DNA of 64,000 nt from positions 1 to 64,000 of the IMG/VR virus record IMGVR_UViG_3300021962_008382. One strand, written 5' to 3'. The notes beneath the pieces are model-generated. The model saw only the letters and a program-made list of their open reading frames with translations, did not search any database and was not told where the DNA came from. The stretch's first letter is position 1. The number at the start of each line of letters is the position of its first letter. The stretch comes from a virus. Shown one piece after another: positions 10,389 through 30,210 of the stretch. The position numbers and the translations under genes are program-made.

Positions 10389-11286
10389 TACGAGAAACGA
10401 TCACAGGCGATTTTTTAGTGTAACATTCGATGACATCGTCTACTACGCTAGATAGTGTTTCTTTAAATGTATACCCGTAGCTATTTTGAAATTTACTAGA
10501 GTCGGTGGCGAAGTTATAAATTCCTTGAGTATTACCTTTGTCGGTTATAGGTACACCCGTCTTTTCGCTTACTACCTTAGATATTTCACCTACTGTTGAA
10601 TTAAAAGATACAAGATTGTAAATATCAGAAACACCGGGATTAACAAGAATAATATACACTGCTCTTACTAGATCTTTAATTGATAAAATAGGTCTATTAA
10701 TATGGCTATTAGTTACATTAATTAGATTTTGATATAGAGCTGTATACACCATGCAGTTTATCATAAGATCTCTGCGAATTACAGGTGATCCTCCGTTAAC
10801 GGTCCCGAATCTAAGACCTACTATCTTTCTACCTGACCCGGGTTTTTTATACGCATTAGCTACGAAGTCTAGAGTGAGTTTTGTAAGATCATAGTTGTTT
10901 ATGTATTCTAAGCAAATATCTTCTTCTGTAAATACTTTATTATTTCGATTACCATAAACTGAAGAACTACTAGCATAGATTATTTTCTGAGAGGGGGTCG
11001 TCTTTTCAATGAGATTGTGGAAATTACGCACATTATTCTTCCACGGTGATGATAACGGCCCGTCACACATTTGAACGCTAGAATGACCAGCAAGTAAAAC
11101 AATATTATTGAATTCTCTTAGAAAAGATTCTGAAAGATTATTATAATCGCAACCTCTATTACCAAAATTAATAACCTCTAATGGTATTTTATTTGCCCCG
11201 TCAATGTCAGTTGATGATTGTAAGTATGGTACTAAGTGCGACCCTATGTATCCATTACCCCCTAAAATAAGTGTTCTTGATCTCAT
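10366..11286 (-). CDS. NAD-dependent epimerase/dehydratase (extended SDR)
   Basis: GGNGYIG, YASSSSVYG, YxxxK (YDLTK). Confidence 0.9.
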   Translation of the reverse strand: MRSRTLILGGNGYIGSHLVPYLQSSTDIDGANKIPLEVINFGNRGCDYNNLSESFLREFNNIVLLAGHSSVQMCDGPLSSPWKNNVRNFHNLIEKTTPSQKIIYASSSSVYGNRNNKVFTEEDICLEYINNYDLTKLTLDFVANAYKKPGSGRKIVGLRFGTVNGGSPVIRRDLMINCMVYTALYQNLINVTNSHINRPILSIKDLVRAVYIILVNPGVSDIYNLVSFNSTVGEISKVVSEKTGVPITDKGNTQGIYNFATDSSKFQNSYGYTFKETLSSVVDDVIECYTKKSPVIVSRNEYFQYD

Positions 11287-12116
11287 TCATTCACCATGTA
11301 CATATACTCTTCTAGATTACCTGTTGATTTCTTATCTGTAGAAGTAATAGGTATATACTTTTCGTTTTTTGTTATAGTTCTGTAATCAATGCTGAATCGA
11401 ACTAAGTTAGTAGTATTATTGTGCGACCCATGAACATGGTGAGCAGAAAAGACCGTCTCTGTACCTCTAGGATGAATTATTAAAAACTTATGCTCGTCTA
11501 ACACATCATCATAAGGTACAGGGTGAGGTCTATCTTCTTTGGTTACGTTTTCCCTCGCGATATTTCTATATTTTTGATCCCATGTATCTAAATCAAAGAC
11601 TTCAGAGTTATTTTCAATTTTAAGGTTAAAATACGCAGGTGCAATATAGAAAGTAGATTCAGGAGTAACGTTAGAAAGAGTCATCCAATGATTAACCTGT
11701 CTTTCAGTACCCCCATACCAAGTGTCTCGGTGTGGTTTATAATTATAAGAGATTCCTGAAGAAAGAAAAGATGAATTCGGTATAATACGAAGTCTCGGCT
11801 TATCAAACAACATTAATTCTACATCTTCAGTATTATAGCGATCTCGTATAAGTTGACGGGTAAGTTCCTTTGTTAGATCGCTTTCCGTAAACCGGGATTT
11901 AACCCAGGTACTTTTCTTTACAAAAAGATCTATATTTTCTTCATATGGTTTATGAGATATATTTTCGATCTTTTCTTCAAAGACTCCCTCTATTAAATCT
12001 TTTGCATATTCACAAAGAAGAAGACTAGCTTTATTTGCTGGGAGTGTTGCAATACTCCCGTTTAATATTTCTTGAATATTAACTTTGTTATCTAATCTAA
12101 ACGTTTTTGTTTTCAA
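11283..12116 (-). CDS. Putative 2OG-Fe(II) oxygenase (PhyH-like)
   Basis: HxD (PHRDTW), distal H (HVHGS), RFSIDYR. Confidence 0.65.
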   Translation of the reverse strand: MKTKTFRLDNKVNIQEILNGSIATLPANKASLLLCEYAKDLIEGVFEEKIENISHKPYEENIDLFVKKSTWVKSRFTESDLTKELTRQLIRDRYNTEDVELMLFDKPRLRIIPNSSFLSSGISYNYKPHRDTWYGGTERQVNHWMTLSNVTPESTFYIAPAYFNLKIENNSEVFDLDTWDQKYRNIARENVTKEDRPHPVPYDDVLDEHKFLIIHPRGTETVFSAHHVHGSHNNTTNLVRFSIDYRTITKNEKYIPITSTDKKSTGNLEEYMYMVNE

Positions 12117-13216
12117 GCTAAAGCCTCATATCGAAAATTGTTAAGTAATTTTATGATCTTATACTTATCTTTTTCTGTTAGCCAGCAACCTACTGGTATA
12201 CAGATTTGTGTTTCCGAAAATTTATCGACACCTGGTCTTTCATCACCACCATAATGAATAGTTGTATCGTACATATCGTTACGATAGTGAACCGGGCTTG
12301 TGGCTACATCATTTTTATGCATGTAGTCTGTAAATACCTGGCGCATACCTTTCTCAACATGCATACTGAATAACCAATAAGAGCAAGTATTATCCCATGT
12401 AGGTAGAGTTAAGCGGGGATTGTCTATATTTTCGATATACTTTTTTGCATTATTACGGTTGGCTACAACCGACTTAAAAGATAAGGGTAGATTAGCGATA
12501 CCTATAGCGGCATTAATATCATTCATGTGGTATTTAAAACCAACATTAGTAATATTTTGCGTGCATCTAAACGATTGATTTTTTGTTCTATCTAACCCAT
12601 ACCAACGTAAAGTTTTAGCTAGTTGAGTAGTTTCTTCATCCGGGGCAATCAAGATACCTCCGTCCCCACATGTCAAGAACTTGATAGCCTGAAAGCTATA
12701 GCAGATATAATCTCCTCGTTCAGGTTTATTTTCCGCAGATAGAAATACATCCCAGGTATGTGCTGCGTCTTCTATTACCGGTATATTAAACGACTTAAGC
12801 TGTTTATAATCGCAGAATTTACCTGCCCAGTTAACGGCTATAATAGCTTTCGTTCTTGGGGTGATAAGTTTTTTTACGGATTCTGGTTTAATTAGCCCTG
12901 TGATCGGATCAATATCAGCCCACTTTATAATAGCGTGACGATGAATAATATGTACGTTAGACGCAAAACATGTTTGAGGGGTAGTTATTATCTCATCACC
13001 AGGTTTAACACCAATAAGCTCTAGTGCAAGATCAATAGCTGAAGTACAACTATTTACTGTCACCGGTGAAGTTTTAGTACCGAGAAAACTTGAACTTTGA
13101 AGCATGTCTTCAAATTCATCTACCTTACTTCCTTGGCCAATATAACCTGAATTAAGTACAGCTGAGACGCTTGCTGCAGCTGTATCTGACATCACAACTT
13201 TAAATAAAGGTATCAT
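12113..13216 (-). CDS. DegT/DnrJ/EryC1/StrS PLP-dependent sugar aminotransferase
   Basis: NSCTSA, VIEDAAH, SFQAIKFLTCGDGG. Confidence 0.93.
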   Translation of the reverse strand: MIPLFKVVMSDTAAASVSAVLNSGYIGQGSKVDEFEDMLQSSSFLGTKTSPVTVNSCTSAIDLALELIGVKPGDEIITTPQTCFASNVHIIHRHAIIKWADIDPITGLIKPESVKKLITPRTKAIIAVNWAGKFCDYKQLKSFNIPVIEDAAHTWDVFLSAENKPERGDYICYSFQAIKFLTCGDGGILIAPDEETTQLAKTLRWYGLDRTKNQSFRCTQNITNVGFKYHMNDINAAIGIANLPLSFKSVVANRNNAKKYIENIDNPRLTLPTWDNTCSYWLFSMHVEKGMRQVFTDYMHKNDVATSPVHYRNDMYDTTIHYGGDERPGVDKFSETQICIPVGCWLTEKDKYKIIKLLNNFRYEALA

Positions 13217-13893
13217 ACTCTTATTTTATCTAGTTTACCGAATATTTTTTCGTGATAACTTCTTTTTACAAACATAATATCTATCTGAAGTAGTACATTT
13301 TCAGAGCGATGTATTTCAAATACATCTACAGGAATAAAATCTTTTGATCCCATGTGTGCAATATATTCCCCGATTCTAGGTGCACCGCTATTGTAGTTAA
13401 TAATAGGGCATTCCATGTAGACCAGACTAGCATTATTTAGCGCTTTCTCCCCACCTAAGAAAATATCCAGTTCAGAACCCTGAGTATCAATTTTTATGAA
13501 ATCAGGCAAAGGTAGATTGTGTTGATTGATTATACTGTCGAGTGTTGTACAAGGCAACCTAGTTGGGATACTATTATCGTAATGAGCGGTAGTTTCTTTA
13601 TAATAGGAATCCCCAGTATCACCACTCTGATAGAAGTCTACAAATTTAGTATTTGGACTACTCAGCACACCGATGTTGTAAAAGAATGAAAGCTGATTAT
13701 TAAGTTGCTTAATATGCGGTTCATATTGTGGATTGGCTTCAAAAAGAAAAAAATCACTATCAAAAAGAACACTAGACTTCATTTGAGAAGTCCAAATACC
13801 TCTACATGCACCTACATCATAAACAGTCTTTAGACTGCCGCCATTTGCTTTTATTTGTCTTATGAAGTTTGTTAAATTAGATACCTGAGTCAT
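13213..13893 (-). CDS. FkbM-family methyltransferase
   Basis: YDVGAC.G, FEAN, TLDS, FIKIDTQGSEL; start placed at MTQV. Confidence 0.9.
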   Translation of the reverse strand: MTQVSNLTNFIRQIKANGGSLKTVYDVGACRGIWTSQMKSSVLFDSDFFLFEANPQYEPHIKQLNNQLSFFYNIGVLSSPNTKFVDFYQSGDTGDSYYKETTAHYDNSIPTRLPCTTLDSIINQHNLPLPDFIKIDTQGSELDIFLGGEKALNNASLVYMECPIINYNSGAPRIGEYIAHMGSKDFIPVDVFEIHRSENVLLQIDIMFVKRSYHEKIFGKLDKIRV

Positions 13894-14335
13894 ATTTGTA
13901 TTCCATAGTATAGATTTTTTCGTTCTCACCGATGATACTAAAACCTAACTTTTCATATACCTTGAAAGCTCTTAAGTTTGTCTTCAATACTTCTAGTCTA
14001 ATGGGTTGCTGTTTGTTGCAGTTATCTACCAAGAACTTAAAGAGCGTTTGACCGAGGCCCTTGTCGCGATATTCCGGAATTAACCCTCCTGTAAGTAAAT
14101 ACTGACTTGGTTCAAGGTGAATAACCCCAAATCCAGCATCTACAGCAACCGCCCCGTACTCAATACTATACGCAATATACAACTCGTATTTCTTATAAGC
14201 AGTCTTAAACCATTCTCGCTGCTGCTCAGGAGTAATTTCATCGGTACTCCTCGTCATAAAAGAGGAGCATTTATTTCGAATTGTACGAAGAATCTCAGCT
14301 TCTGCTTCCGTAGTTACTCTCTTAAACACTAGCAT
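13877..14335 (-). CDS. GNAT acetyltransferase (PseH-like)
   Basis: PEYRDKGLG, LEVLKTNLRA..VYEKLGF. Confidence 0.88.
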   Translation of the reverse strand: MLVFKRVTTEAEAEILRTIRNKCSSFMTRSTDEITPEQQREWFKTAYKKYELYIAYSIEYGAVAVDAGFGVIHLEPSQYLLTGGLIPEYRDKGLGQTLFKFLVDNCNKQQPIRLEVLKTNLRAFKVYEKLGFSIIGENEKIYTMEYKYDSGI

Positions 14336-15279
14336 AAAAATACCTCGTCAAATTTCTTCATAACATCTTTAGGGTTAAATTCTTTTACACGTTGCGTCCA
14401 ATCTTCTTTAATATCTTTAACGTTGTGGAGTAGATAGTTAAGATCGTCTTCGTTGTTGTAGAGGGTATTAGACCCCTTTAGCATTTCTAAATGATTTTTG
14501 TCATGCCCTCCGTTCCATGCAATAACGGGCTTATTGAAATGTAGAAACTCTGCGATCGACAAACCAAATGACTCGCCGCGACCTCTTGCGTGAAGCATAG
14601 CATCACACATATGGATAAAGTTAGACTTTTTCACCGGGGAATGGGTTTCATTGAAGTACATTACATTATCATGTTGTACGAAAGGTTCAGTATTTAAGAA
14701 TGCAAAAACAAACTTATCTGTATCTAGTAATTTTTTAATCGTTTCCTTCACACCTGGAATGTCGAACGTATAGTATCCCCCCATTCTACCAATGACTGTT
14801 TGATCCGGTCTTATCATGAAAAATTCTCTTAGATCGGTATCACCCGGGGGTGGTAGATTTACTATATGAGGTACATAAGGAGTTTGCCCCTGCGACATCT
14901 CATCAGATAACCATTTCGAAATGTATGCATACTTATCGCCATGAGGTTGATTATACTGAAACACAGCATGAACAGCGGTCTTACAATTGGTAGGCAAGGG
15001 CTTTCGCTCACCTGAATCAATAAAGTAAGCCAGATCGACTTTTTCTTGGTCGATTTTCTTTTCTAGATCACCGGCCCTATATCCTACTACTTTAAATTTT
15101 TTTTCTAATTCATCTATTACTGCCTGCTCATTACCCATGTCTTTTTCTGGACCATAAGTCTTGCAGTAGGTAATTACTGACTCATTACCAAGTATTTCCT
15201 GGTTGTAGTGCGCATAGTCTGCAATCGCAACAGATGTGCCTCTGTAGTTGAGCGTATTAGCATGAAACAAAATTTTCAC
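14329..15279 (-). CDS. GT-B (GT4-like) glycosyltransferase
   Basis: CDAMLHAR.RGESFGLSIAEF...KPVI motif. Confidence 0.85.
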   Translation of the reverse strand: MKILFHANTLNYRGTSVAIADYAHYNQEILGNESVITYCKTYGPEKDMGNEQAVIDELEKKFKVVGYRAGDLEKKIDQEKVDLAYFIDSGERKPLPTNCKTAVHAVFQYNQPHGDKYAYISKWLSDEMSQGQTPYVPHIVNLPPPGDTDLREFFMIRPDQTVIGRMGGYYTFDIPGVKETIKKLLDTDKFVFAFLNTEPFVQHDNVMYFNETHSPVKKSNFIHMCDAMLHARGRGESFGLSIAEFLHFNKPVIAWNGGHDKNHLEMLKGSNTLYNNEDDLNYLLHNVKDIKEDWTQRVKEFNPKDVMKKFDEVFLC

Positions 15280-15956
15280 GGGACGACTTTTCCTCTATAA
15301 TCTAGTGTCTTCGAATTAAAGTGGGTTGTATTATCAAATCTACCTTTTACTATTTCTTCACATCTTTCTGCAAACAGCTGCATGTTATTACCCATTCTAC
15401 CTTGATAGAGATGGTAGACTGTGTTTTCAAAAGTTGTACCTACCCCATAATAACCATAATTACCTAACGGCCAAACTCCTTCTACTGGTTCACGTTCGAA
15501 TGTAGTTGGATACAAACAGCGATACCGAATATTAAGTTCTTCTGCTCTATAGGTAACTTCTTCGGCTACGTCGCCGCGATTGCTTTCAGCAAATGATGTA
15601 TGCAGTTGTTGCCAACAGCTTTTCGTCATTACATAAAAAGCTGGTGCTGCATATATGTGTGTCTTAGGGGGTATGTGATTAGATACTTGAGTTATACCTA
15701 GAAAGGTCTTCGTTCTTTGTACATGCTTGATGCATTCAAGCATTTTAATCTTATCAATCGGTACACAGTCAGCATCAAAGAATACGACAATATCGGATGT
15801 AGAGTTGGCCATGACTCTATCCATCCATTGACCGTGAGGGGTATATTCTTCGTAATAATTTACAGGTATCTCGAAGTGATCGGTTACCCGTTTATGTGCT
15901 TTAATTTGAAGGGGGTCTGAGTTAGGCCAGTATAAGCAATTAAACTCAACTTTCAT
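15276..15956 (-). CDS. Putative glycosyltransferase-like protein
   Basis: VVFFDADCVP DxD motif; first gene of the sugar cluster; start placed at MKVEF. Confidence 0.6.
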   Translation of the reverse strand: MKVEFNCLYWPNSDPLQIKAHKRVTDHFEIPVNYYEEYTPHGQWMDRVMANSTSDIVVFFDADCVPIDKIKMLECIKHVQRTKTFLGITQVSNHIPPKTHIYAAPAFYVMTKSCWQQLHTSFAESNRGDVAEEVTYRAEELNIRYRCLYPTTFEREPVEGVWPLGNYGYYGVGTTFENTVYHLYQGRMGNNMQLFAERCEEIVKGRFDNTTHFNSKTLDYRGKVVP

Positions 15957-15986
15957 AGTATAGTCATCCTGTAAAAGACACCACAC

Positions 15987-16015
15987 ATTATATAGGAGTT
16001 AAAACAGGAGTGCAA
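15987..16015 (-). promoter_or_regulatory. sigma70-type promoter for the sugar cluster
   Basis: TTGCAC-17 bp-TATAAT. Confidence 0.7.
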
Positions 16016-16034
16016 TAGCTACACCCCTGTTTTT
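16001..16034 (-). terminator. Terminator after the TonB-dependent receptor
   Basis: AAAACAGGGGTG..CACTCCTGTTTT stem followed by Ts. Confidence 0.7.
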
Positions 16035-16041
16035 GGTTAAG

Positions 16042-18255
16042 TTAAATTGAATACTTTACCGATATTCCAAACGTTCTTGGTGCGTTGAAGTTACCATAAG
16101 TACCTAATACTGCGTCGTTAGACGGATCTCTTCTAAACACAAAGTGACCATCAAGAAGATTCCTCGCCCAGACTTGGAAAGATACTCCGGGTAAGTTATT
16201 TATTTCAGTAATATCAATACTACTGTTAACTATAAAAGAACCATCGTTGAAAATTTCAAATTCTGAAAATGGGTGAGACGGGTCTGATCTATTAGCGTCA
16301 ATATGAGTTTCCATTAAAAAAGATTTAAATTTTTTAGAATGGTCAAGACTTAAGTTCCAAACATTCTTAGGAGTGAAGACAATAAACACCGGCTGAATAA
16401 GGTTTTTGAAAGGGTTAATTGTAGGAGGTACGTAAGTGTCAGTATAAGTATACGCTAAAGTAACATCTAAATTATCTGTAACTAAAATAGTACCATCCAC
16501 TTCCAAACCTTCGATCTGAGTAACCCCCGGGGCGTTCATTGTTTCAAGAGTGTGTCTTGATGACCTAGAAACAGGATCATATATTACCTGGCTAAAATCT
16601 ATCTGGCTGCCAGTTCTCTCCATAGTGTAGGCAGCAACGTTTATTCTTGCAATACCTGCTTGTGCTTTAACACCCAGTTCATAAGAGATATTATCTTCCG
16701 GCCCGAAGGATCTAAAGGTGGCTGATCTTGAGCTTGCTCCCCCTGATCTATAGCCTGTAGCGTATTTTATATACACATTTACGTTATCAAATGCATCATA
16801 TGCAGCGATAGCCAGCGGATTAAATCTAGACGATTCTTCGATAAAGGTATAGGGGGAAGGAACATTTCTAAGTAAGTAGAGTGAACCATCTTTTTTGTCT
16901 TGAGTATATCTGCCCCCTAATGTAAGATGGAGTTTTTCTAGAAAACTAGGGGTATATGTAGCTTGTGAGAAAACCGCTCTACTTTCTGCAGTAGCCTCGC
17001 TACCTCTATCGATGAATCTTCTACCTGGTAAAGTAGGAGTAAGATCATTAATAGTATAATCTGTTAGTGTTGAGTTCCAGGTATTTGTAGAAGGGGTCGC
17101 CGCTTCTTCATAAGCATCTTCTATAAAATAGTATATTCCTGCAACATAATCAATGCTATCTGTACTACCTATAAGCTGAAATTCTTGACTAAACTGGGTC
17201 TGATGTAATTCCGAAATACTGTATCTACTAAACACGCTATTTGGCTTAGCTACTGGTATACGATGGGCTCCCCCAGCATTATCCCACTGAGTTGAGTCAA
17301 CATATCTTTTCGATGTAATAGATTTTATCTCTATGTTATCTGTAGCGTTCCAAGAAGCGGTGAGACTTGTTCCTCCTACATCTGCTACGCTGGGTTGTTG
17401 TGGTACACCAATATCTGCTACTTTCATAATGCTGGTACCATTCACAACTACCTGTGGAGGTAAGGGGGTAATTGTAGATACATTTAAAGGGTTAAAATTA
17501 AGAAGTTGGCTGTAGAAAGGGCTGCTTGCATCTTTACTGACATCATAAGAAAAATCAAGTGTTAGATTATCTGTTTCTAACCTATTAGAAAGCTTGAAAC
17601 CGGTTCTTTCAAAAAAGTTCCAACCTGTTTGACCTGCTAGGGGATTTCTTGTTGTAGGGTCTTGATACTGAGATAATGCATCTATCTTAGTACTAATGTT
17701 AAAAACCTCGGGTAAGTTTAAATGAAAATCAACATTATTACTATTATAGTTACCAACACCCGCATTGAATCTAAAATCGAATTCACCGATAGGTTTTTTT
17801 GTAACCATACTAAGAGCACCGCCTTCAGTATTGCGGCCAAATAAAGTACCCTGTGGACCTTTCAATACTTCTATGCGCTCTAAGTCTAATAATGCTGCAT
17901 TGAGACCATGTTGACGACCGAGATAAACACCGTCAATGTATATCCCTACCCCCTGTTCTCTAGCTGGTTGATTAGCATCAAGAGGCACAATACCACGAAT
18001 ACCTACTGTTACTGCAGATTGTCTAGACTCAAAAGGAGCTATATTAAGACCGGGGACAGACCCATCTGCAAGATCCATTAAACTCTGTACGTGCTTTTTT
18101 TCTATATTCTCAGAACTAAGAACTGACATTGATATAGGTGTATCAATGAGGTTAGTTTCTCTTTTTGTAGCGGTTACAATTATTTCTTCGAAGGCAGGTT
18201 GAGCGTAAAGAGGAGAAGAAAATAATAAGAAAAAAGAAAGATATTTTCGTAACAT
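16042..18255 (-). CDS. TonB-dependent outer-membrane receptor
   Basis: Signal peptide, TonB box EEIIVTA, plug motif IEVLKGPQGTLFGRNTEGGA, C-terminal APRTFGISVKY. Confidence 0.95.
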   Translation of the reverse strand: MLRKYLSFFLLFSSPLYAQPAFEEIIVTATKRETNLIDTPISMSVLSSENIEKKHVQSLMDLADGSVPGLNIAPFESRQSAVTVGIRGIVPLDANQPAREQGVGIYIDGVYLGRQHGLNAALLDLERIEVLKGPQGTLFGRNTEGGALSMVTKKPIGEFDFRFNAGVGNYNSNNVDFHLNLPEVFNISTKIDALSQYQDPTTRNPLAGQTGWNFFERTGFKLSNRLETDNLTLDFSYDVSKDASSPFYSQLLNFNPLNVSTITPLPPQVVVNGTSIMKVADIGVPQQPSVADVGGTSLTASWNATDNIEIKSITSKRYVDSTQWDNAGGAHRIPVAKPNSVFSRYSISELHQTQFSQEFQLIGSTDSIDYVAGIYYFIEDAYEEAATPSTNTWNSTLTDYTINDLTPTLPGRRFIDRGSEATAESRAVFSQATYTPSFLEKLHLTLGGRYTQDKKDGSLYLLRNVPSPYTFIEESSRFNPLAIAAYDAFDNVNVYIKYATGYRSGGASSRSATFRSFGPEDNISYELGVKAQAGIARINVAAYTMERTGSQIDFSQVIYDPVSRSSRHTLETMNAPGVTQIEGLEVDGTILVTDNLDVTLAYTYTDTYVPPTINPFKNLIQPVFIVFTPKNVWNLSLDHSKKFKSFLMETHIDANRSDPSHPFSEFEIFNDGSFIVNSSIDITEINNLPGVSFQVWARNLLDGHFVFRRDPSNDAVLGTYGNFNAPRTFGISVKYSI

Positions 18256-18326
18256 ATAAAGCTCCTTTAAATGTCGCTTTATATATTTTTTATATGTTAA
18301 AGAAGGGTTTAAGAAGAAATTAATTG

Positions 18327-18551
18327 TTAATTAATTGTTGTTCGAATACGAACTATGCCTTTATACAATATAGGTACGTACCACCAAGATCTTTTTCTTT
18401 GATCAGTTATAGTATACTCCCATGTTATATTTGTTGCCGGGTCGGTCCAAGAGGTATGAAAACCGAACCACGTCTTGGCTTTATGCCAATTAATAGTTCC
18501 CCCATGTTTAATTTTTTGATGAATAGCCCAGATAAGACAGTTACTATACAT
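18327..18551 (-). CDS. Hypothetical protein
   Basis: 74-aa ORF co-oriented between DUF1552 and the receptor. Confidence 0.55.
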   Translation of the reverse strand: MYSNCLIWAIHQKIKHGGTINWHKAKTWFGFHTSWTDPATNITWEYTITDQRKRSWWYVPILYKGIVRIRTTIN

Positions 18552-18589
18552 AACTGTATATATGGATAGAATTCTTAACGTTTTCTTAA

Positions 18590-19807
18590 CTAAACTTCTT
18601 GAAAAGGCCCGGTGCTATCTGCAAAAGATTCGATGGGAATACCAGCTTTAACAAGCATAGTGTGTATCAGATTTGCATGAGGTGTATTTTGAGGATACGC
18701 TAAATGTTGATTACCCCTTATACCTCCAGCTTTACCTATTAGAACACTTGGAAGCGGGTCATTATTATGCATATCGCTATTACTCATATTACTACCAAAA
18801 AGAATAATAGTATTATCAAGTAATCCAGCAGATTTAAGTCTATTGGCAAATTTTACAACTCTTTCCGTTTGCCATCTTTGTAGTCTTACCAGTTGCTCGT
18901 ATTTTTCTTCTTTTTGCTGATGGTGGCTGAGAGGATGAAAAGCTTCCTCAATACCTAAATTACTAAAGACTCTCATGCTAGCTTCTCGAACCATACGCAT
19001 TGAAGCTATACGAGTCTGTCCTGTTTGAAAAGCTAAAGTCATCATTTCGAACTGTATATCTAACAGCTCTTGAAAATCATCCGGAGGACCGATAGGTGCT
19101 TCTGGAACAGAATTTAAATTAGCTGCAGAAGATTCGAGCGCTCCTATGCGTTTTTCTATATCTCGAACACTAGTTAGATATTCATCTACTTTTAATCTAT
19201 CGCTGCTGTCTAGTTTTTTATTTAACTGCTGAGTTGATTCTAATACATAGTCTAATAGACTTGATTTTTGTTGCAATATAGAGATTCTATCTTCGTAATT
19301 ATCACCATCACCAAACATTGTGTAATATACTTTACGGGGATTACCTTCTAGTGGAAGTGGTACGTTTCCATCTCGATAATTTAAAGACCCACCAGGTTCA
19401 CCACACAGCTCTATAGATGATAGAGGTGTAGAGCCGGAAAAATGCTTAGCAGCTATCTGATCTGCACTCACTGATCTTTGATCTGGTGCAACACATGTCA
19501 GCCAAGTTTCTTCAATGATACCATGTGGATTAGTACTCTCACCACCTTTGTTTCTTAAACCGCTTACCACAGTGGTATATTCGCGAAGTTCTTCTAATGG
19601 TTGCAGTATAGGAGAAAATTTAAAATTAGACCCTGTTTGTTCAGGAGTCCAGTACTTCATTACTGCCCCGTGCGGAAAATAAACATAGGCGAGGTTAGAC
19701 TGAACAGGTGCATTACCATAAGCTCCTGGTATCATTGCATCTAACAGGGGCAGGCTTAATGTATAACCAGCCCCTCTTAGAACAGTACGCCTACTCAATG
19801 GTTTCAT
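18590..19807 (-). CDS. DUF1552 (HXXSHH) family protein with Tat signal
   Basis: LSRRTVLRG Tat motif, YFPHG, FHPLSHH, LLDNTIILFGSNMSNSDMH. Confidence 0.9.
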   Translation of the reverse strand: MKPLSRRTVLRGAGYTLSLPLLDAMIPGAYGNAPVQSNLAYVYFPHGAVMKYWTPEQTGSNFKFSPILQPLEELREYTTVVSGLRNKGGESTNPHGIIEETWLTCVAPDQRSVSADQIAAKHFSGSTPLSSIELCGEPGGSLNYRDGNVPLPLEGNPRKVYYTMFGDGDNYEDRISILQQKSSLLDYVLESTQQLNKKLDSSDRLKVDEYLTSVRDIEKRIGALESSAANLNSVPEAPIGPPDDFQELLDIQFEMMTLAFQTGQTRIASMRMVREASMRVFSNLGIEEAFHPLSHHQQKEEKYEQLVRLQRWQTERVVKFANRLKSAGLLDNTIILFGSNMSNSDMHNNDPLPSVLIGKAGGIRGNQHLAYPQNTPHANLIHTMLVKAGIPIESFADSTGPFQEV

Positions 19808-21213
19808 GTTTCTATAAGCCCGGTTGATTCTAACCTACTATCACCAAATCTTTTACCGTCAAATACTTCATCGTGAACTTTCCCAGTCTCCTCAATTTTT
19901 TCTGAATATAGAAGAGTGTTTTGTGGTATATCAAATATATTTAAAACATCGACAAGCATATCACAGTTAGTTACTGTTCTCTTTTCAAAAGCTAGGTGTC
20001 GATTACCTTTAAGCTTTTTTCCTGCGCCGCCTATAAATACAAGAGGTGTATCATAGTGTAAATGTTGATTGGGATTACCCATATTACTACCGTACATGAT
20101 TAAAGAATTATCTAATACAGTAGTACCATCAGTATCTTGCATCTCATTAAGTTTTATAGCTAAGCTAGCTACCATATCATTGTGGTAGCGGTTAATCTCT
20201 CCAAATTCTTTTATTCTAGACGGGTCTTCACCATGATGAGAACCCGAGTGAAAACCCAACGTAGGTACCTTGCTCATCGGGTATGTTCTGCCTGTTAAAT
20301 CTCGCGCCATCAGCATTGTACTAACTCTTGTGATATCACTTTGAAAAGCTAAAGACATAAGATCAGCCATAATATTGAAATGATCATGAAAATTATTGGG
20401 TATTCCTAAAGGCTTTTCCGGGGATTCAGCACCCATTTCATCCGATTTAGCTATTGCTAAATCTATTCTACGCTCAACTTCTCTTATATTAGTAAAGTAC
20501 TGATCAATTCTTTCAACATCAGGCTGCGATAAAGACTTTTCAAGTTTCTTTGTCTTATCCATCACACTGTCTAAAATACTTTGATCTCTTCTTCTATTTT
20601 TTAGTTGTATCTCTTTAGATGAGCCATAACCAAACATTCTCTCGTAAATAACTACCGGATTAAGTTCCATGGGATTAGGGCTCCACGGGTCTGACCAGCT
20701 TACGGTATTAGTATATACACATGAATAACCTTCTCCGCAGTTGCTTGATCCTGATCCTGGATCTTCCAAAGCTATTTGCATAGAAGGCATCAGACTGTTT
20801 TGCCCATGTATTTTTGCGATTACTTGATCAATGCTAGGCCCACAAATACCGCTCCCTGTGGTCTTGACAGGCTTAACCCCTGAAAAGAAACCTGCTGCTA
20901 CGAAGTGATCTGCCCCAGTAATACCAGGAGGATTATCACAGCTTTCGCTCCAAATACCAGATGTGATTACCATCTTATTTTTAATTTGCTCAAAACCCCC
21001 ATACAAGTAAGGAAGTTTTTCTAGTGTGGGACCTTGTGGTACCCAATAACCAGGAGCAGCTCCATGAGGTACAAATATGCCTACAAATCGCTGCGGAGGT
21101 TTAGGGGCTTCAGCAAAAGCGGGTATCATAGCAGAAAGGAAGGGTAGAGATACCCCTCCTAGCGCCCCTCTCAATACAGTTCGTCTATCTAACTTCTCTT
21201 TTGTAATAATCAT
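19804..21213 (-). CDS. DUF1552 (HXXSHH) family protein with Tat signal
   Basis: LDRRTVLRG, FVPHG, GYSCVYTNTVSW, FHSGSHH, LDNSLIMYGSNMGNPNQH. Confidence 0.92.
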   Translation of the reverse strand: MIITKEKLDRRTVLRGALGGVSLPFLSAMIPAFAEAPKPPQRFVGIFVPHGAAPGYWVPQGPTLEKLPYLYGGFEQIKNKMVITSGIWSESCDNPPGITGADHFVAAGFFSGVKPVKTTGSGICGPSIDQVIAKIHGQNSLMPSMQIALEDPGSGSSNCGEGYSCVYTNTVSWSDPWSPNPMELNPVVIYERMFGYGSSKEIQLKNRRRDQSILDSVMDKTKKLEKSLSQPDVERIDQYFTNIREVERRIDLAIAKSDEMGAESPEKPLGIPNNFHDHFNIMADLMSLAFQSDITRVSTMLMARDLTGRTYPMSKVPTLGFHSGSHHGEDPSRIKEFGEINRYHNDMVASLAIKLNEMQDTDGTTVLDNSLIMYGSNMGNPNQHLHYDTPLVFIGGAGKKLKGNRHLAFEKRTVTNCDMLVDVLNIFDIPQNTLLYSEKIEETGKVHDEVFDGKRFGDSRLESTGLIET

Positions 21214-21234
21214 TATAACCCCGTAATGAGATTA

Positions 21235-21549
21235 TTAGCTTCTCGACATGTATGCAGAAGATCCAAAGAAGGTAGCTACAACACCAGCTTGAGCAATATA
21301 GAACATACTAAGCAGATTATCTAATGCAGCAAGTCTTTCTACACTAATCATTGGGAAAAACAATGCAATGGTAAATACAACCATGGATAGCATAGCCACC
21401 CAGGCCATTTGTCTAAGCTGATCTTCTTTCTTATCTTTGTTTTCGATTTCAGCTAACCGTTCACCTCTAGACATTTCCTCGTCTGTAACTACACCATCAC
21501 CATCTGAGTCAAACTGATTGTATATTGAATTAGATTCTAACTTCTTCAT
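21235..21549 (-). CDS. EF-hand-like loop + 2-TM membrane protein
   Basis: DSDGDGVVTDEE loop, two hydrophobic helices. Confidence 0.7.
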   Translation of the reverse strand: MKKLESNSIYNQFDSDGDGVVTDEEMSRGERLAEIENKDKKEDQLRQMAWVAMLSMVVFTIALFFPMISVERLAALDNLLSMFYIAQAGVVATFFGSSAYMSRS

Positions 21550-21568
21550 ATATCCTCTTCTATTAAAG

Positions 21569-22084
21569 TTACTCTTCTGCTAAAGGATTTTCAAGTATTT
21601 GTTGTATTTTATCCTCTAGCTCATCCCTTGCTTCTCTCAACTGCGCATCAATCTCTCTCATACGATCATTTAATGTAGATTCCATTGCATACACATCGTT
21701 TCTTAGATCACGCTGTGTTACATTGGTGTTCTCGTCAATATTACGAACAAAAGCATCAACTGTATCTAGATCAGATCTTATTTCTTCAATGTCTGTTCTT
21801 GCTGAATCAAGTAATGTAGTTACAGTTTGAAACTGCTGTGCAACGTCTTCCTGTAATGCAGTAATTGATTCAGCTTGAACAGCCAGCTGCTGATTAATAC
21901 CTGACATATCTGGTGCTACATAGGTTGTAATTGCTTCTTCAGCGTCTAATAGACGTTGATATACCTCAAAACCACCCCAGAGTGCTCCACCTAGCGAACC
22001 CAATATTGGAACGAGCAACAGCATTTTGCTGCCTGTTAAACTCATTCCAGCAAATTCTATTTGAGCGCCATTCTCGTCACTCAT
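21569..22084 (-). CDS. Membrane-anchored coiled-coil protein
   Basis: N-terminal TM followed by heptad-rich sequence. Confidence 0.7.
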   Translation of the reverse strand: MSDENGAQIEFAGMSLTGSKMLLLVPILGSLGGALWGGFEVYQRLLDAEEAITTYVAPDMSGINQQLAVQAESITALQEDVAQQFQTVTTLLDSARTDIEEIRSDLDTVDAFVRNIDENTNVTQRDLRNDVYAMESTLNDRMREIDAQLREARDELEDKIQQILENPLAEE

Positions 22085-22102
22085 TTCTTTCTCCTGAAGA
22101 AC

Positions 22103-22384
22103 TTATGTTTTTATTTTCGATCTTGCTTTTTTAACACCTTTATCTACAGCATCTTTTACCTTAGTACCAGCAAGTTTCGCATCTTCTGTATTTACTACAC
22201 CATCTTTATTTAAGTCGGCTGTTGATTTAACCGTGTTAACGACTTTGTTAAGAGCATCCTTAGCGTCTTTTGAATCTACTACACCATCAGAATTAACATC
22301 TAATTTAGATGGGCTGCTAATGACGTAAATCAAGAAGCCAATAATTGCTACAACTACTAATATACCTAAGACTAAACTATCCAT
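22103..22384 (-). CDS. TM protein with two dockerin/EF-hand-like loops
   Basis: DVNSDGVVDSKD and DLNKDGVVNTED. Confidence 0.7.
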   Translation of the reverse strand: MDSLVLGILVVVAIIGFLIYVISSPSKLDVNSDGVVDSKDAKDALNKVVNTVKSTADLNKDGVVNTEDAKLAGTKVKDAVDKGVKKARSKIKT

Positions 22385-22446
22385 ACTTTTCTCCTATAAT
22401 ATTAAAGATACAACCCTGTATTTTTTACAGAGTATGCCAATATGTA

Positions 22447-24390
22447 TCATTTAAATTGCATTTCTACCATTTGTTCATGTTTATTATCTACCCCAATAAG
22501 TTGGAGCATACTATTTCTATCGTTTTGAACTTTATTATTTAAATAAAGATCTTTGCTTTTATAGAATTCTACATCTTGTAATGTACCACCGTATGTATCA
22601 AACCCGGGCCTATAAGCGATAAGCTGCAACGCGATCGCCTGTGCTTCTGGGTCCATTGACCCAATTCGATCTTGAGCCTGCTGTTCTATTTCTTCTTGAC
22701 TCATTGTCTGAATAGCGTTTTCTACTTTAGCTGTTTGTACTTGCTCTTCTTGAGCTGGTGGTTTAATATCGTACTTGCTAAAATTAGGAACCACGGTATT
22801 AAGTATTTCTGTAATAGTACCCCCTGTCGCCAATACCTGTTGCATACTATTGTTTGAGAATACTGTTGCAGCGTTATTATTGACTACAACTAGATCAATA
22901 AGTGGCTGACTAATTTCTAATAGTTCATTTTCTGCTGATTCTAAGGTATTATCATCTTCCAGATTTTGTTGTAGGCTGAATAGTGTCTGGTCTTGCTCGG
23001 TTGTTTCATATGTCGTACTCTGAGTATCACCAAATATTAGATTATTATCATTAACTGTTTCCGCTGCAGTTTTATCTTCTATAGTAGAATTATTTTCCTT
23101 ATTACCTTCTTCCTGCGATATTACTTGATCTGTTGTGTTAGATATTTCTTTAATTTCTGTTATAACATCAGCTGTATCAGATATCTCTTGAATGGGTTCT
23201 AATTTTATTTCCTCTTCTACTGTAGTTTCAGTTACTATTAGCATATCAGGATCTAGATTATCTGTTTCAACGGTGATATCATTAGAGGGTTCTACTAATG
23301 CAGATATATCAGCTATTCTAGATTCAGATGTAGGCTTAGCATTAGATTGCTCGATAGTTTGATTAATAGCCAGCGGGGTAGCAGTAGTAGGGGGTTGAGA
23401 TAAAGAATCTTCACTGGTAGAAGTTTCTACTATACTTAATATTAGCTTAAGTAAGGAAGAAGAAGGTGTATCTTTATTTACTTCTGCAATTTCTTCCTCA
23501 TTATCTACCTCCTCTTCAAATACTTCTTCCTCAGATTCTTCTTGAGCTGTCTCAATCGGCTCATCAATATCATCTATTATCTCTTCTTGCAAAGGTTCCT
23601 CGATATCAGCTATAAGCTCTTCTTCCTCAATAGGCTCTTCATCTTCCTGTTCTGGTTCATCAACGTCTGCTGCTAGAGACGCTTCTAAATAACCAGGGCA
23701 TTCTATACTCGAAAGTGGGTCCGTGCTGCATTGTAATTCTAGAAGTGCTTCTTGGAAATTGGGGCAAGAAGGAGACGAAAAGGGATCGTTTGCGCAAGGA
23801 TCAGGACCGTAGTTTAGACTAAAGGACATACTATTGACTTCTGGACCGTAGAACCCAGCCCAGAAGTTAGCATCTCTTCCTACAAAACCAACTCTCACAT
23901 TATCTAGTTCATAGATTCTGTAGGGGTCAGCGAACGTCTCTGTATAGTTAAAATTAGACCAATTAAATTGATATTGCAGGTCGTAGTTATAAGCCTCAAG
24001 CAGGGTGTTGCTGCTGTCATAGAAGTTAGCATATGCTCGTAAATAATCAGTTCTCCCGTCGTCCCAGCCGTTTCCGTTTTTCGCAGTGAAGCTAAAATTG
24101 AAACCTGTTATTATAATACTATTCCCTGCAGCATTTAACGCAGTCTGAATACTTATTAACTGATATAGATCGGCCAGCCCGTAAGAGAAATTAATGGAAT
24201 CGGGGGTAAAGGCCCCTACTGCTGGCAGGGGCCCACAATAACCAGGATCAGCGGCAGACCAACAAGTTAACGGTTCATTTATCATACCGTAACCGTTCCA
24301 CTCATTATAATCTAATAAATTTTGAGTGGAGTCTTGGCTTCTACAAATAGATGAAACCAATAGCAATAAGATTACAATAACACCCTTCAT
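22447..24390 (-). CDS. Large secreted acidic protein
   Basis: Signal peptide, aromatic-rich N-domain, CxxDPxxxxxCP repeats, long E/D/T-rich linker. Confidence 0.75.
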   Translation of the reverse strand: MKGVIVILLLLVSSICRSQDSTQNLLDYNEWNGYGMINEPLTCWSAADPGYCGPLPAVGAFTPDSINFSYGLADLYQLISIQTALNAAGNSIIITGFNFSFTAKNGNGWDDGRTDYLRAYANFYDSSNTLLEAYNYDLQYQFNWSNFNYTETFADPYRIYELDNVRVGFVGRDANFWAGFYGPEVNSMSFSLNYGPDPCANDPFSSPSCPNFQEALLELQCSTDPLSSIECPGYLEASLAADVDEPEQEDEEPIEEEELIADIEEPLQEEIIDDIDEPIETAQEESEEEVFEEEVDNEEEIAEVNKDTPSSSLLKLILSIVETSTSEDSLSQPPTTATPLAINQTIEQSNAKPTSESRIADISALVEPSNDITVETDNLDPDMLIVTETTVEEEIKLEPIQEISDTADVITEIKEISNTTDQVISQEEGNKENNSTIEDKTAAETVNDNNLIFGDTQSTTYETTEQDQTLFSLQQNLEDDNTLESAENELLEISQPLIDLVVVNNNAATVFSNNSMQQVLATGGTITEILNTVVPNFSKYDIKPPAQEEQVQTAKVENAIQTMSQEEIEQQAQDRIGSMDPEAQAIALQLIAYRPGFDTYGGTLQDVEFYKSKDLYLNNKVQNDRNSMLQLIGVDNKHEQMVEMQFK

Positions 24391-25634
24391 TTAGTTCTCG
24401 GCATGTTAGGTGTATCGGTAAGATCTCTATCTCTTCTTTCATTATAACCTGGAACTTCAGTTCTATTCTCTTCCCAGGCCTGGGATGCCTCATCTCCAAT
24501 AAGACCTTCATACGGGCAAGGTGTTCCAGCCATTTTCATAGCGGTCCACACACGCTCATCTTGACACATTAATGATACGGCTGCAACTCTCATACCCATG
24601 TCGTATAAGGTTTTGCTCAGCTTAATTCTTTCGCAATTTTCATCTGTAACAGATTTACCACCAGATATACCTAGAATTTGAGTTTGAACCCCGCCACTAA
24701 TTCCCGTAGTACATAAGTCTTGCGAATAGCTACTTCCAATACTAGGGGCAATGGCGCTCGGAGGTGGTGAGTTAATATCCTGTTCCATTCGCTGTACACT
24801 TTCGTTTCTAGTTATATTTTCATTATAGTTAGTGTTAGTATTATCAGAGACACTTGAGTTTTGATTTATGTTGGTATTACTATTTGTATTAGTGCTAGTA
24901 GTATTTTGATTAATAATACTTTCACTGGTGCTGGTGCTAGTGTTTTGATTTACATTTAAATTTTCACTTACTGAAGTACTATTATTATTGCTATTAATTA
25001 CACTGTTGCTATTGCTTGTGTTAACTGTCTGGTTAAAGTTATTGTTGGTGTTTGTGCTAGTATTATTGTTATTGTTTGTGCTTACCGATTGATTAAAATT
25101 ATTATTAGTATTTGTACTTGTACTAACGTTGTTATTGTTATTAGTATTTACAGACTGTGTATAGTTAAAATTATTATTAGTATTTGTACTTGTACTAACG
25201 TTGTTATTGTTATTAGTATTTACAGACTGAGTATAGTTGTTGTTAGTACTATCAATAACGCTAGTACTCGTGTTAATGTTATTGTTGTTATTAGTGTTTA
25301 CAGAAGTGCTTGTACTTATGTTATTGTTATTATTGGTGTTGGTATTAACAGATGTACTATTGTTGGTGTTAGTGTTATTATTTGTAGAGGTTGTAGTATT
25401 AATATTAGTATTAAGGTTAGTGTTATCGCTAGTACTAGTACTATTATTGGTATTAATATTAGTAGAGGTACTCGTTGATGTAGAAACCGAGTCGTTAATA
25501 TTGGTATTAGTAGCCGTAGAGGTAGTTGTACCTGTATACGTAGTATTAGTATCGTTGGTCGTATTTACAGTTGTGGTCTGAGCATGTACAAAAGAGGTCA
25601 TCAGAAACATAATAAGAAAATGAACTAACTTCAT
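24387..25634 (-). CDS. Secreted Asn/Thr-repeat protein with Cys-containing C-terminal domain
   Basis: Signal peptide, ~260 aa of N/T/S low complexity, then PPPSAIAP..DLC..CERIKL..MCQD..GTPCP. Confidence 0.8.
   Translation of the reverse strand: MKLVHFLIMFLMTSFVHAQTTTVNTTNDTNTTYTGTTTSTATNTNINDSVSTSTSTSTNINTNNSTSTSDNTNLNTNINTTTSTNNNTNTNNSTSVNTNTNNNNNISTSTSVNTNNNNNINTSTSVIDSTNNNYTQSVNTNNNNNVSTSTNTNNNFNYTQSVNTNNNNNVSTSTNTNNNFNQSVSTNNNNNTSTNTNNNFNQTVNTSNSNSVINSNNNSTSVSENLNVNQNTSTSTSESIINQNTTSTNTNSNTNINQNSSVSDNTNTNYNENITRNESVQRMEQDINSPPPSAIAPSIGSSYSQDLCTTGISGGVQTQILGISGGKSVTDENCERIKLSKTLYDMGMRVAAVSLMCQDERVWTAMKMAGTPCPYEGLIGDEASQAWEENRTEVPGYNERRDRDLTDTPNMPRTK
25093..25238. repeat. Near-perfect 72-bp tandem duplication in the N/T-rich gene
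   Basis: TTAAAATTATTATTAGTATTTGTACTTGTACTAACG... occurs at 25093 and 25165. Confidence 0.85.
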
Positions 25635-25654
25635 TTCCGCTCCGATGTTTTAAT

Positions 25655-26122
25655 TTATCTTATTAGGAGATTAAGGAAGAACACTAGAATTACAACAGTT
25701 GCTACACCTAAAAACCCTACAAATATCATATCCATCAGAAACTTATTTCTTTGGGCCTTTATTCTAGCTTGTTCTATCCTTGCTTCTCTTATATTTCTTC
25801 TTTCTCTCATCATATCTTCGTAAAATTGACCTTGACCGCTGTATATGAGAAATTCTCTTAGCTCTTTTTCCAGCTGAGCTGTCTTATACTTAGCAGCTGT
25901 AACTTCTAGAGCTTGAGCTTCTACACTTCTCCCGGTAAATAATTTCTTAACGAGAGGTACATTGCTGTTATACTGAGAAGCTTCGATTATCGATTCTTTA
26001 GCTTCAAAGAATCTCGAGAAATATCCGGCAACATCTTCAACCTCTCTACCTGCTTCTACAGCTTTTTTAATTCCGTTGAAGGCTGATACAGCCATATTCA
26101 TGGCTACTGCAATTTCAATCAT
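25655..26122 (-). CDS. Hypothetical protein with C-terminal TM
   Basis: MIEIAVAM..AFNGIKKAVEAGREVED; C-terminal hydrophobic helix; start placed at MIEIA. Confidence 0.7.
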   Translation of the reverse strand: MIEIAVAMNMAVSAFNGIKKAVEAGREVEDVAGYFSRFFEAKESIIEASQYNSNVPLVKKLFTGRSVEAQALEVTAAKYKTAQLEKELREFLIYSGQGQFYEDMMRERRNIREARIEQARIKAQRNKFLMDMIFVGFLGVATVVILVFFLNLLIR

Positions 26123-26230
26123 GATACCCCCCATGATATAGATCATGTATAGCTAAGGTTAGCAAATTGGGGATCATCAGAAACATAACAATGAAACTAA
26201 TCTTGTTCATTGCTGCCTCTATAGAGAATG

Positions 26231-26510
26231 TGCTGGTTGATTCTGTTGCCAAGTTCAACCAGCAAAACTCCGACTAATGCTTAAGCAGCAAGAGCCAGGT
26301 TATAAACGTCATCGTTTGCGTTTATTTTAAGTTTAGTTTTTACGTCTACTCTGACGATTCTCCACATGCCTTCAGTCGTCTGTCGAATCCAGAACAGCCC
26401 CATCAAATAACCTCTCAGCCGACCTTTCGGTATTCTACGGAGAGAGGCCATTTGGTGGAGCTGGGGGGAGTTGAACCCCCGTCCAAACTTCCTATTACAT
26501 GCTTCAACGA
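26231..26510 (-). ncRNA. ssrA: Circularly permuted (two-piece) tmRNA
   Basis: The acceptor piece GGACGGGGGTTCAACTCCCCCCAGCTCCACCA (ends 26453) precedes the coding piece that starts GGGGCTGTTCTGGATTCGAC (26401); G3.U70 pair; tag ANDDVYNLALAA* at 26319-26281; outer ends approximate. Confidence 0.92.
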
Positions 26511-26534
26511 ATACTATATAACCATTATTTATGG

Positions 26535-27545: not shown

Positions 27546-27699
27546 TTACTACTCTATAGTTGGGTTTGTTCCGGCTTGTGTTAATATCTATATTTTTATC
27601 CCGCACGCATATACCACACTTACTACCCACAATATTGATTAACTCAGGGTTCTTTTCCAAGTCTTTTTCTGAAATATTATTACACACACATACTATCAT
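27505..27699 (-). CDS. Bfd-like [2Fe-2S] protein
   Basis: MIVCVCNNISE...GSKCGIC four-Cys pattern. Confidence 0.75.
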   Translation of the reverse strand: MIVCVCNNISEKDLEKNPELINIVGSKCGICVRDKNIDINTSRNKPNYRVVNGTTNLPSNVLPN

Positions 27700-27902
27700 T
27701 TTACTTTTGAAAGTTTAAGCTCTTTACGGGCATAATATTCAAGCATCATACGCTGCATAGTACCTAAAGGATTAGCTGTACCAGGTACTTTAAATCTATA
27801 CGGGCTATTACCCCAGGTATTACTAAGTACAAAAGTATTAAAATGCTGACGATGCTCTTTTTTACTAACATCAAAAAATACTTCAGGTCTCATATTATCC
27901 AT
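27696..27902 (-). CDS. Hypothetical protein
   Basis: Coupled ORF. Confidence 0.6.
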   Translation of the reverse strand: MDNMRPEVFFDVSKKEHRQHFNTFVLSNTWGNSPYRFKVPGTANPLGTMQRMMLEYYARKELKLSKVK

Positions 27903-27904
27903 AT

Positions 27905-29784: not shown

Positions 29785-29862
29785 TGGAGCTCAGGGCCGG
29801 ATTCGAACCGGCGGCTTTACGGTTTTGCAGACCGTTGCATTGGGCCTCTCTGCCACCTGAGC
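29785..29862 (-). tRNA. tRNA-Cys(GCA)
   Basis: Cloverleaf, anticodon loop CTGCAAA, GGTTCGAATCC, encoded CCA. Confidence 0.9.
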
Positions 29863-29921
29863 ATTAATTACCTACTTACTCACTCCGACCAGGGCAAGTT
29901 TAAAGTGCTTCCGACACTATC

Positions 29922-29998: not shown

Positions 29999-30003
29999 AT
30001 GTA

Positions 30004-30206: not shown

Positions 30207-30210
30207 GGTA

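Follow-up and report, generated by a model that had tools for sequence, protein, structure and literature searches.

What does a phage gain from genes for proteins of the bacterial envelope? The question is raised by the first 64 kb (64,000 nucleotides; hereafter the window) of a 158,915-base IMG/VR virus record, IMGVR_UViG_3300021962_008382 (CheckV completeness 94%), where two genes of the DUF1552 family, here called DUF1552-A and DUF1552-B (A and B), lie beside a gene for a TonB-dependent receptor. An original prediction, made from the letters alone, had read the three as one envelope module in which A and B might form a heterodimer that works with a host protein. Our analysis indicates that they are genuine, an auxiliary gene set of T4-like phages not described before, with a putative function. 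The chief surprise is the repeated capture of DUF1552 without the haem protein that stands next to it in bacteria. We favour, with moderate confidence, the explanation that a T4-like phage took them from bacterial hosts as auxiliary genes acting in the envelope of the infected cell, where DUF1552 would be a subunit added to a host cytochrome partner and the receptor a separate importer.

The three genes belong to a T4-like phage

The contig is that of an uncultured T4-like water phage of ~159 kb, with T4-like marker genes (Table 1). Its gp46 is at most 50.5% identical to that of any of 50,697 deposited phages, the closest being Methylophilales phage Melnitz and cyanomyoviruses, and a crude call over the contig places 194 of 211 open reading frames (ORFs) on the minus strand.

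That the genes entered the record through an assembly chimera, or as a recent host fragment in a viral bin, is barely credible, even though the contig, having no end repeats, is listed as linear in IMG/VR and a sister record (G001, below) is labelled a provirus. The composition is fully phage-like, as the original prediction had noted in proposing long residence: G+C at third codon positions is 0.27 in the receptor gene, 0.24 in B and 0.29 in A, compared with 0.30 +/- 0.07 for the genome (128 genes) and 0.36–0.79 in four bacterial orthologues of B. Near-identity to a recent host block was not found, the nearest bacterial proteins being just 69% (B), 55% (A) and ~57–61% (receptor) identical. 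Records of the three proteins come from three contigs of three sources, and at least six further viral records have the same genes amid T4-like ones. Public sequencing runs speak against a chimera as well. Of the 20 runs listed, 11 contain half or more of the words sampled from 15200–22400, and all 30 bins of 12000–28000 are covered by three runs that carry no mark as possible source. Contigs of run X12 bridge the junctions of receptor, spacer and B with no differences, and contigs of runs X4 and X5 bridge that between A and the 104-aa gene preceding it. A further joint in run X4, from 19315 to 22449, was set aside as unreliable, one side being 21 letters.

Phage copies of B differ at a proportion of 0.11–0.19 of nonsynonymous sites (pN) and 0.72–0.79 of synonymous sites (pS); the latter are saturated, and the rate ratio dN/dS is ~0.05 where computable. 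A bacterial pair gives 0.067, and so does a pair of phage receptor genes (L153/L159), here at an unsaturated dS of 0.69. In sum, these are intact genes of the phage, resident in it for a long time and held by purifying selection. Host-derived genes inside a bona fide phage genome and so constrained are what is meant by auxiliary genes, and their expression during infection is predicted.

DUF1552 without its bacterial cytochrome partner

Both DUF1552 genes score well above the curated cut-off of 30 bits for PF07586 (DUF1552/HXXSHH). They overlap by 4 bases and encode proteins of 31% identity (127/411). Each protein begins with RRTVLRG, a twin-arginine leader from which Tat export is predicted, and each has the HxxSHH motif (HPLSHH in B, HSGSHH in A), both motifs being where the original prediction had seen them. 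R6 and R7 of the leader are almost invariant in an alignment of 129 sequences, and Pfam TAT_signal matches among DUF1552 relatives all lie under that model's cut-off. The description of A and B as overlapping, intact and divergent holds; a duplication within the phage does not, because they belong to different bacterial subfamilies and fall in separate clades (below). A tblastn search with DUF1552 found no match in the 50,697 deposited phage records, neither A nor B has a PHROGs family, and the DUF1552 literature consulted deals with bacteria and yielded no phage description.

In bacteria DUF1552 does not stand alone. An ORF of 762–893 aa ends just upstream of it in all 40 loci, from bacteria or metagenomes, whose upstream DNA is long enough to tell, and the five partners scanned all have the architecture PSD3-PSD5-PSD4-PSCyt3-PSD2 with an N-terminal cytochrome c domain and two conserved CxxCH sites, that is, two haems. 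A-type bacterial genes have a partner of their own (three of three loci). The order is partner, DUF1552 and an ankyrin-repeat protein in five of five loci, followed in the two loci scanned by a protein of metallo-beta-lactamase fold. Such pairs of PSCyt3/PSD (DUF1587-1595-1592-1588-1585) and DUF1552, with an exported ankyrin protein as third gene, are described from Planctomycetota, Verrucomicrobiota and Proteobacteria in the portion of He et al. 2017 (PMC5615132) drawn on here, which states that nothing is known of the function of the PSCyt/PSD genes and their neighbours. The phage proteins share with this system the DUF1552 family, the twin-arginine leader and HxxSHH, and the clade of B is nested among its gammaproteobacterial members. 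The phage differs in lacking the cytochrome partner, ankyrin and metallo-beta-lactamase genes and in having two different subfamilies side by side. The original prediction had noted that the window lacks a DUF1592/DUF1588 partner, and the absence extends further: DUF1592 (PSD4) and DUF1588 (PSCyt3) have no match at E <= 1 on the whole 158,915-base contig, and neither is matched in any of five viral records, this contig included. Downstream of A and B lie B itself, a 74-aa ORF and the receptor, with no ankyrin gene there.

The same partner-less state recurs in other phages. A sister phage (L005/G001), a 267-kb record with Gp23, holds genes for 424-, 649-, 105-, 153- and 174-aa proteins, a B-type DUF1552 (75%), a receptor (78%), a GT2 glycosyltransferase and a phosphoesterase, flanked by UvsX, gp32 and terminase. 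It thus has the same secreted-protein block as the window, DUF1552-B and a receptor of the same family, but one DUF1552 instead of two, and a GT2/phosphoesterase pair after the receptor that the window phage lacks. Lone A-type genes (~52%) lie beside gp15/MazG in L003 and beside gp47, gp46 and peptide deformylase in L092. In L092 a 753-aa ORF after DUF1552-A was considered as receptor or partner and rejected: it has no Pfam match, an AAA_5/CbbQ_C ATPase gene comes next, and we take it to be a cytoplasmic vWA/CobT-like protein. Two short metagenome contigs (L093, L094) carry B at 81–82% identity and are the only close relatives found among metagenome contigs; one has homologues of the 647- and 163-aa proteins before B, the other a different phage gene, not a receptor, after it. 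Another B-type gene (60%) stands alone in a 358-kb record (terminal repeats, 100% complete, Gp23), with RNR/Acb1/Thg1 on one side of it and a UvrD helicase on the other. In this jumbo phage (G004) the gene (L007:7854-9156) comes directly after an Acb1 anti-CBASS homologue and a Thg1-like tRNA-His guanylyltransferase.

A tree of the family places these genes among bacterial ones more than once. B of the window, that of L005 and metagenome relatives of 71–82% identity form one clade (support 100), nested in a clade (97) with metagenome-assembled genomes (MAGs) labelled Pseudohongiellaceae, Pseudomonadales and Gammaproteobacteria. The B genes of L006 and L007 form a separate clade beside another gammaproteobacterial MAG (80). 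A of the window (clade support 99) belongs to 15 rows that group together (100) and have a bacterial sister, and the A-type genes of L003 and L092 are sister to a different gammaproteobacterial protein (99). Since these are four phage clades, each with bacterial neighbours, the tree implies that T4-like phages captured DUF1552 four separate times, if the unlabelled metagenome rows are phage; relatives among metagenome proteins reach 71–81% identity to B and 60–80% to A. Five of the MAGs nearest B (2.5–3.9 Mb) have 10–18 DUF1552 genes each and are candidate hosts. Their best matches are 65–69% to B and 53–55% to A, the latter equal to the best named bacterial protein in a search of 5.8 billion proteins.

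These distributions bear on the proposal that A and B form a heterodimer working as one machine with the receptor. The 4-base overlap suggests coupled translation, all three genes are adjacent on one strand, and contigs of equal size (4850, 5590, 8757 and 17674 bases) among DUF1552 and receptor matches suggest, from size alone, further co-occurrence. However, the phages captured A and B separately and from different subfamilies, in bacteria each type comes with a cytochrome partner of its own, and B occurs without A in five loci (L005, L006, L007, L093, L094) and A without B in L092 and within the 8 kb of L003. Because each type occurs alone in other phages, a heterodimer is very unlikely, and this part of the original prediction is not supported.

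Its other suggestion, cooperation with a host partner, is plausible in view of the 40 bacterial loci, and a complex fold adds weak support. Mature phage B folded with residues 230–841 of the partner from locus L013 (a Pseudohongiellaceae MAG) scored 0.37, the best control 0.01; runs agreed in at least 73% of contacts, with a predicted local distance difference test (pLDDT) of at least 81 for the partner. The mark applied is reached by 116 of 157 solved complexes and by 2 of 215 mismatched pairs, and low passes are often wrong unless the guess is likely beforehand, as it is here because the adjacency of the partner in bacteria is invariant. The model thus gives modest support to phage B being able to dock on a host-type partner.

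One side observation concerns the sister family DUF1501, which pairs with PSCyt2 proteins in bacteria. A DUF1501-domain protein of an uncultured Caudovirales phage (BFVD A0A6J5M742) matches the DUF1552 model weakly (E 1e-3), and phages may carry DUF1501 too; no function assignment was found for DUF1501 in the literature consulted.

The receptor, the DUF1552 fold and their possible roles

The receptor is full-length, as originally proposed. Its 737 aa compare with 733–745 aa in relatives of 69–89% identity at 98–100% cover (57–89% among relatives overall). Pfam identifies both the plug (PF07715, 2.5e-18, 67 bits, residues 36–147) and the barrel (TonB_dep_Rec_b-barrel, PF00593, 2.7e-22, 80.7 bits, residues 187–700), and phrog_5687 matches over the plug region (1.5e-28). 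The N-terminus consists of a signal peptide, MLRKYLSFFLLFSSPLYA, and then QPAFEEIIVTATKRE, which resembles the TonB-box consensus. The 20 viral loci that include the N-terminus have a signal peptide, and LEEIVVTATKRE or a near variant where the 30 printed residues reach. All 19 NCBIfam matches of the receptor, to siderophore, haem and B12 models, are far below the cut-offs (best 104 bits against 223.5), and TonB_C and ExbB have no match in any of five viral records.

This receptor family is found at 24 IMG/VR loci (48–82% identity), 19 of which have T4-like genes beside it (gp44, gp46/47, gp32, gp59, terminase, ligases, Hsp20). The loci (L152–L175) occupy many genome positions, some beside ClpP, gp32/gp59, ligases or terminase; in L157, which may be partly bacterial, FecR and a CHASE2 cyclase adjoin the receptor. 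A SusC-like TonB-dependent receptor in the marine megaphage Mar_Mega_1 was read as an uptake-enhancing auxiliary gene in the portion of Michniewski et al. 2021 (PMC9723777) drawn on here. The claim that nothing of this kind had been described in phages therefore stands for DUF1552 and not for the receptor. Both are full-length receptors in phage genomes; that of the window differs in belonging to another phage group (T4-like, 159 kb), in not being SusC-like by any test run, and in being one of a widespread family. DUF1552 adjoins the receptor in just 2 of the 24 loci, which does not fit the fixed three-gene module first proposed. Receptor and DUF1552 are probably independent cargo lying together in this lineage, with no obligate three-part machine. 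Their sources also differ, because the nearest named bacterial relatives of the receptor are Sphingomonadales (57%) and the candidate-host MAGs match it poorly (below).

The company the receptor keeps suggests another use. In L153, L154 and L159 it travels with five phage-specific secreted or membrane proteins, encoded upstream in one order, and the short L152 holds three of these; in the window it is followed by a sugar-modification island. TonB-dependent receptors serve many phages as the receptor for adsorption. The receptor and the secreted proteins might thus remodel the cell surface, blocking superinfection or keeping progeny from sticking to debris, with uptake beside the point. We consider this quite improbable: the TonB box, plug and barrel are under strong purifying selection, which fits a working transporter better than a decoy; PADLOC gave no match for 10 of 11 proteins and a weak coiled-coil match (E 8e-4) for the eleventh; and the DUF1552 genes would be left unexplained.

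What the DUF1552 proteins may do is indicated by their fold. An AlphaFold2 model of DUF1552-B built with 129 diverse sequences reached a pLDDT of 90.5 (with 13 close sequences it was 50.9 and unusable). Foldseek matched it to sulfatases and LtaS (E 1e-7 to 1e-4, probability ~1.0), and an exhaustive VIA search returned alkaline-phosphatase-superfamily enzymes throughout the best 50 rows listed (Z 16.9–13.5, ~220–265 aligned residues), among them sulfatases, NPPs, PafA, MCR-1/EptA and LtaS; the top match has a root-mean-square deviation of 3.7 over 253 residues. By this model DUF1552 has the core alpha/beta fold of the alkaline phosphatase superfamily, and it differs from it in several respects. 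A long helical hairpin is inserted at 171–229. Sequence searches do not detect the kinship: a 129-sequence profile against PDB sequences gave chance matches only (E >= 0.82), and Pfam at E <= 1 gave, for 30 DUF1552 members, one weak DUF1501 match (E 0.03) and none to sulfatases. The residues invariant in the 129 sequences, A and B included, are P20, H95, D186, D203, H291 and H295, with H347 nearly so, a His-rich set instead of the usual Asp/nucleophile set, and no Ser, Thr or Cys is invariant. Judged by strand and helix order, H95 would begin the helix after the second strand, the place of the nucleophile in the superfamily. The spacing of H291 and H295 would be like that of the DxxxH metal motif of NPPs and alkaline phosphatase.

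Such a fold invites the reading that the genes scavenge phosphorus or sulfur, with the receptor importing an organic phosphate or sulfate ester that DUF1552 hydrolyses in the periplasm as a stand-alone phosphatase- or sulfatase-like enzyme, in the manner of phage pstS and phoA. PafA, NPPs and sulfatases are matched at Z 16–17, and in L005 and L153 a GT2 and a calcineurin-like phosphoesterase gene follow the receptor. On the other side, the protein lacks an invariant Ser, Thr or Cys and has His at the presumed nucleophile place, its two-haem partner in every bacterial locus points to redox chemistry, and it rarely stands beside the receptor. No PlcP-like or PstS-like gene was found in the phage, although an empty protein search shows little. 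We regard scavenging as unlikely, if not strongly so; for a protein with a His-rich metal site, Tat export and a haem partner, a redox metalloenzyme appears a better match than a classical esterase.

The explanation we favour, a subunit supplied to a host enzyme, would work as follows. During infection the phage would make DUF1552-A and -B; each would be loaded with metal in the cytoplasm, exported via the host Tat system and docked in the periplasm on the host two-haem PSD/PSCyt3 protein of the matching subfamily, so that the phage would boost or replenish the catalytic subunit, which has the alkaline-phosphatase fold, of a periplasmic enzyme yet to be characterised. The receptor would insert into the outer membrane, where host TonB-ExbBD would drive import of a scarce substrate. 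DUF1552 is always captured without the haem partner, and the phage therefore probably tops up one part of a bacterial system. Cyanophages supply D1, not the rest of photosystem II. In T4-like phages, psbA (D1) and other auxiliary genes that provide a single subunit are thus a parallel: DUF1552 would likewise be part of a host complex and is kept by purifying selection in a hypervariable stretch of the genome. The complex it would join is, by contrast, periplasmic and uncharacterised.

Several points weigh against this explanation. None of the listed runs that hold the stretch is an RNA run. The complex score lies in the weak band and comes from self-made alignments, and the docked partner is a stand-in from a MAG, not from the phage's host, for which there are candidates only. 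Since the best receptor match in the five MAGs is just 31–42%, the receptor came from elsewhere. The DUF1552 tree is a quick maximum-likelihood one of 79 rows with support from the Shimodaira-Hasegawa-like approximate likelihood ratio test (SH-aLRT) only, and most close relatives in it are metagenome proteins of unchecked phage or bacterial origin. DUF1552 could act alone in the phage setting. Finally, 'auxiliary metabolic' is said by analogy, because the function of the bacterial family is, by the portion of PMC5615132 cited above, not known.

At least four captures without the partner, together with the strong constraint, argue that the gene is important to the infected cell and suggest a limiting subunit. 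On this basis we tentatively propose, as a possibility we would not put at even odds, that T4-like phages of aquatic Gammaproteobacteria repeatedly took only the catalytic DUF1552 of the cytochrome–DUF1552–ankyrin system, maybe as the labile or rate-limiting part of an energy or nutrient enzyme. If true, phage biology would give the first functional handle on families unexplained since the Rhodopirellula genome, pointing to the limiting subunit and the paralogues that matter and offering a natural complementation test. Bacteria of water and soil are rich in DUF1552 and its PSD/PSCyt3 partners. With these genes, the auxiliary repertoire of T4-like phages from fresh, estuarine and marine waters comes to include a putative Tat-exported enzyme subunit and a widespread importer family, which bears on how infection reshapes nutrient uptake.

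Genomic setting and neighbouring genes

The locus lies within a ~42-kb variable region between gp45 and gp46. Along the minus strand the order is the 163-aa membrane protein, the 415-aa and 647-aa proteins, the 93-, 171- and 104-aa proteins, DUF1552-A, DUF1552-B, the 74-aa ORF, the receptor and the sugar-modification island.

Table 1. Features of the DUF1552/receptor locus and T4-like markers of the contig (positions in the window unless stated)
Feature	Position	Strand	Remarks
DNA polymerase gp43	1-2019		T4-like marker
Clamp loader gp44	5380-6312		T4-like marker
Sliding clamp gp45	6329-6997		T4-like marker
236-aa protein, weak GT2-like	15276..15986	-	Pfam GT2 E 0.014; next after receptor; first gene of sugar-modification island
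TonB-dependent receptor, 737 aa	16042..18255	-	signal peptide, TonB-box-like EEIIVTA, plug, 22-strand-type barrel domain
Small Trp-rich ORF, 74 aa	18327..18551	-	between DUF1552-B and receptor; corrects the earlier gene layout
DUF1552-B, 405 aa	18590..19807	-	Pfam HXXSHH/DUF1552 4e-74, 250.4 bits
DUF1552-A, 469 aa	19804..21213	-	Pfam HXXSHH/DUF1552 3.8e-67, 227.5 bits
Three small membrane or coiled-coil proteins (104, 171, 93 aa)	21235..22384	-	EF-hand/dockerin-like Ca-binding loops; weak Pfam EF-hand and Dockerin matches
Two secreted low-complexity proteins (415 aa, 647 aa)	22447-25634	-	
163-aa membrane protein with the 415-aa and 647-aa secreted proteins	22447..26146	-	phage-specific; conserved block upstream of receptor in sister phages
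gp46	49074-50786		T4-like marker
Gp23 capsid gene	64313-65434		T4-like marker; beyond window, same contig

The 74-aa protein is kept in L153, with differences chiefly at third codon positions, and its ORF is missing from one natural variant, a run X4 contig in which 18331 is followed directly by 18591. A riboswitch or leader in the spacer (18256–18589) upstream of the receptor was considered and rejected: Rfam gave zero matches there at E <= 1, and the part of it conserved with L153 is the 74-aa ORF. A scan for sigma-70-like promoters was uninformative (34 sites against 41.9 expected), and TATAAATA occurs 6 times against 10.3 expected, never upstream of the DUF1552 or receptor genes.

Homologues of the 647/415/163-aa block are found in L005, L153, L154 and L159. 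In the secreted 647-aa protein a very acidic linker accompanies an N-terminal domain that looks like a beta-sandwich; its reading as CBM/FBA-like is a lead only. The Atlas neighbours of the block are viral hypothetical proteins. The 415-aa protein, likewise secreted, has N/T/S-rich repeats and a Cys-bearing C-terminal domain and matches phrog_20531; the repeat region at 24542–25428 has length variants in run X12. Homologues of the 104- and 171-aa proteins accompany the receptor in L005, L152, L153, L154 and L159, and the 171-aa homologue also in L158.

Directly after gp45 lies the sugar-modification island (7015–15986, minus strand), which encodes GT2 and GT1-like transferases, a 641-aa C-methyltransferase fusion, an NAD epimerase, a DegT aminotransferase, an FkbM methyltransferase and a GNAT protein. 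On the far side of the secreted block, a tmRNA gene (26190–26569, minus strand) scores 112.5 bits with the permuted (two-piece) model and 77.3 bits with the betaproteobacterial one (cut-off 84), and its type may hint at the host group; the summed contig depth is very high there because of tmRNAs of other organisms. Further along, G+C rises to 0.42–0.47 across 30000–40000, compared with 0.34–0.39 elsewhere, and this part holds many small ORFs and a tRNA array (29785–30668, plus 31987–32073). Amid these tRNA genes lies a second periplasmic redox gene of the phage (30694–31713, minus strand), a di-haem cytochrome c peroxidase of the MauG family (CCP_MauG 1e-55) with a signal peptide and two CxxCH sites; NCBIfam MbnH and MauG models match it below their cut-offs only, and it belongs to another family than the missing DUF1552 partner.

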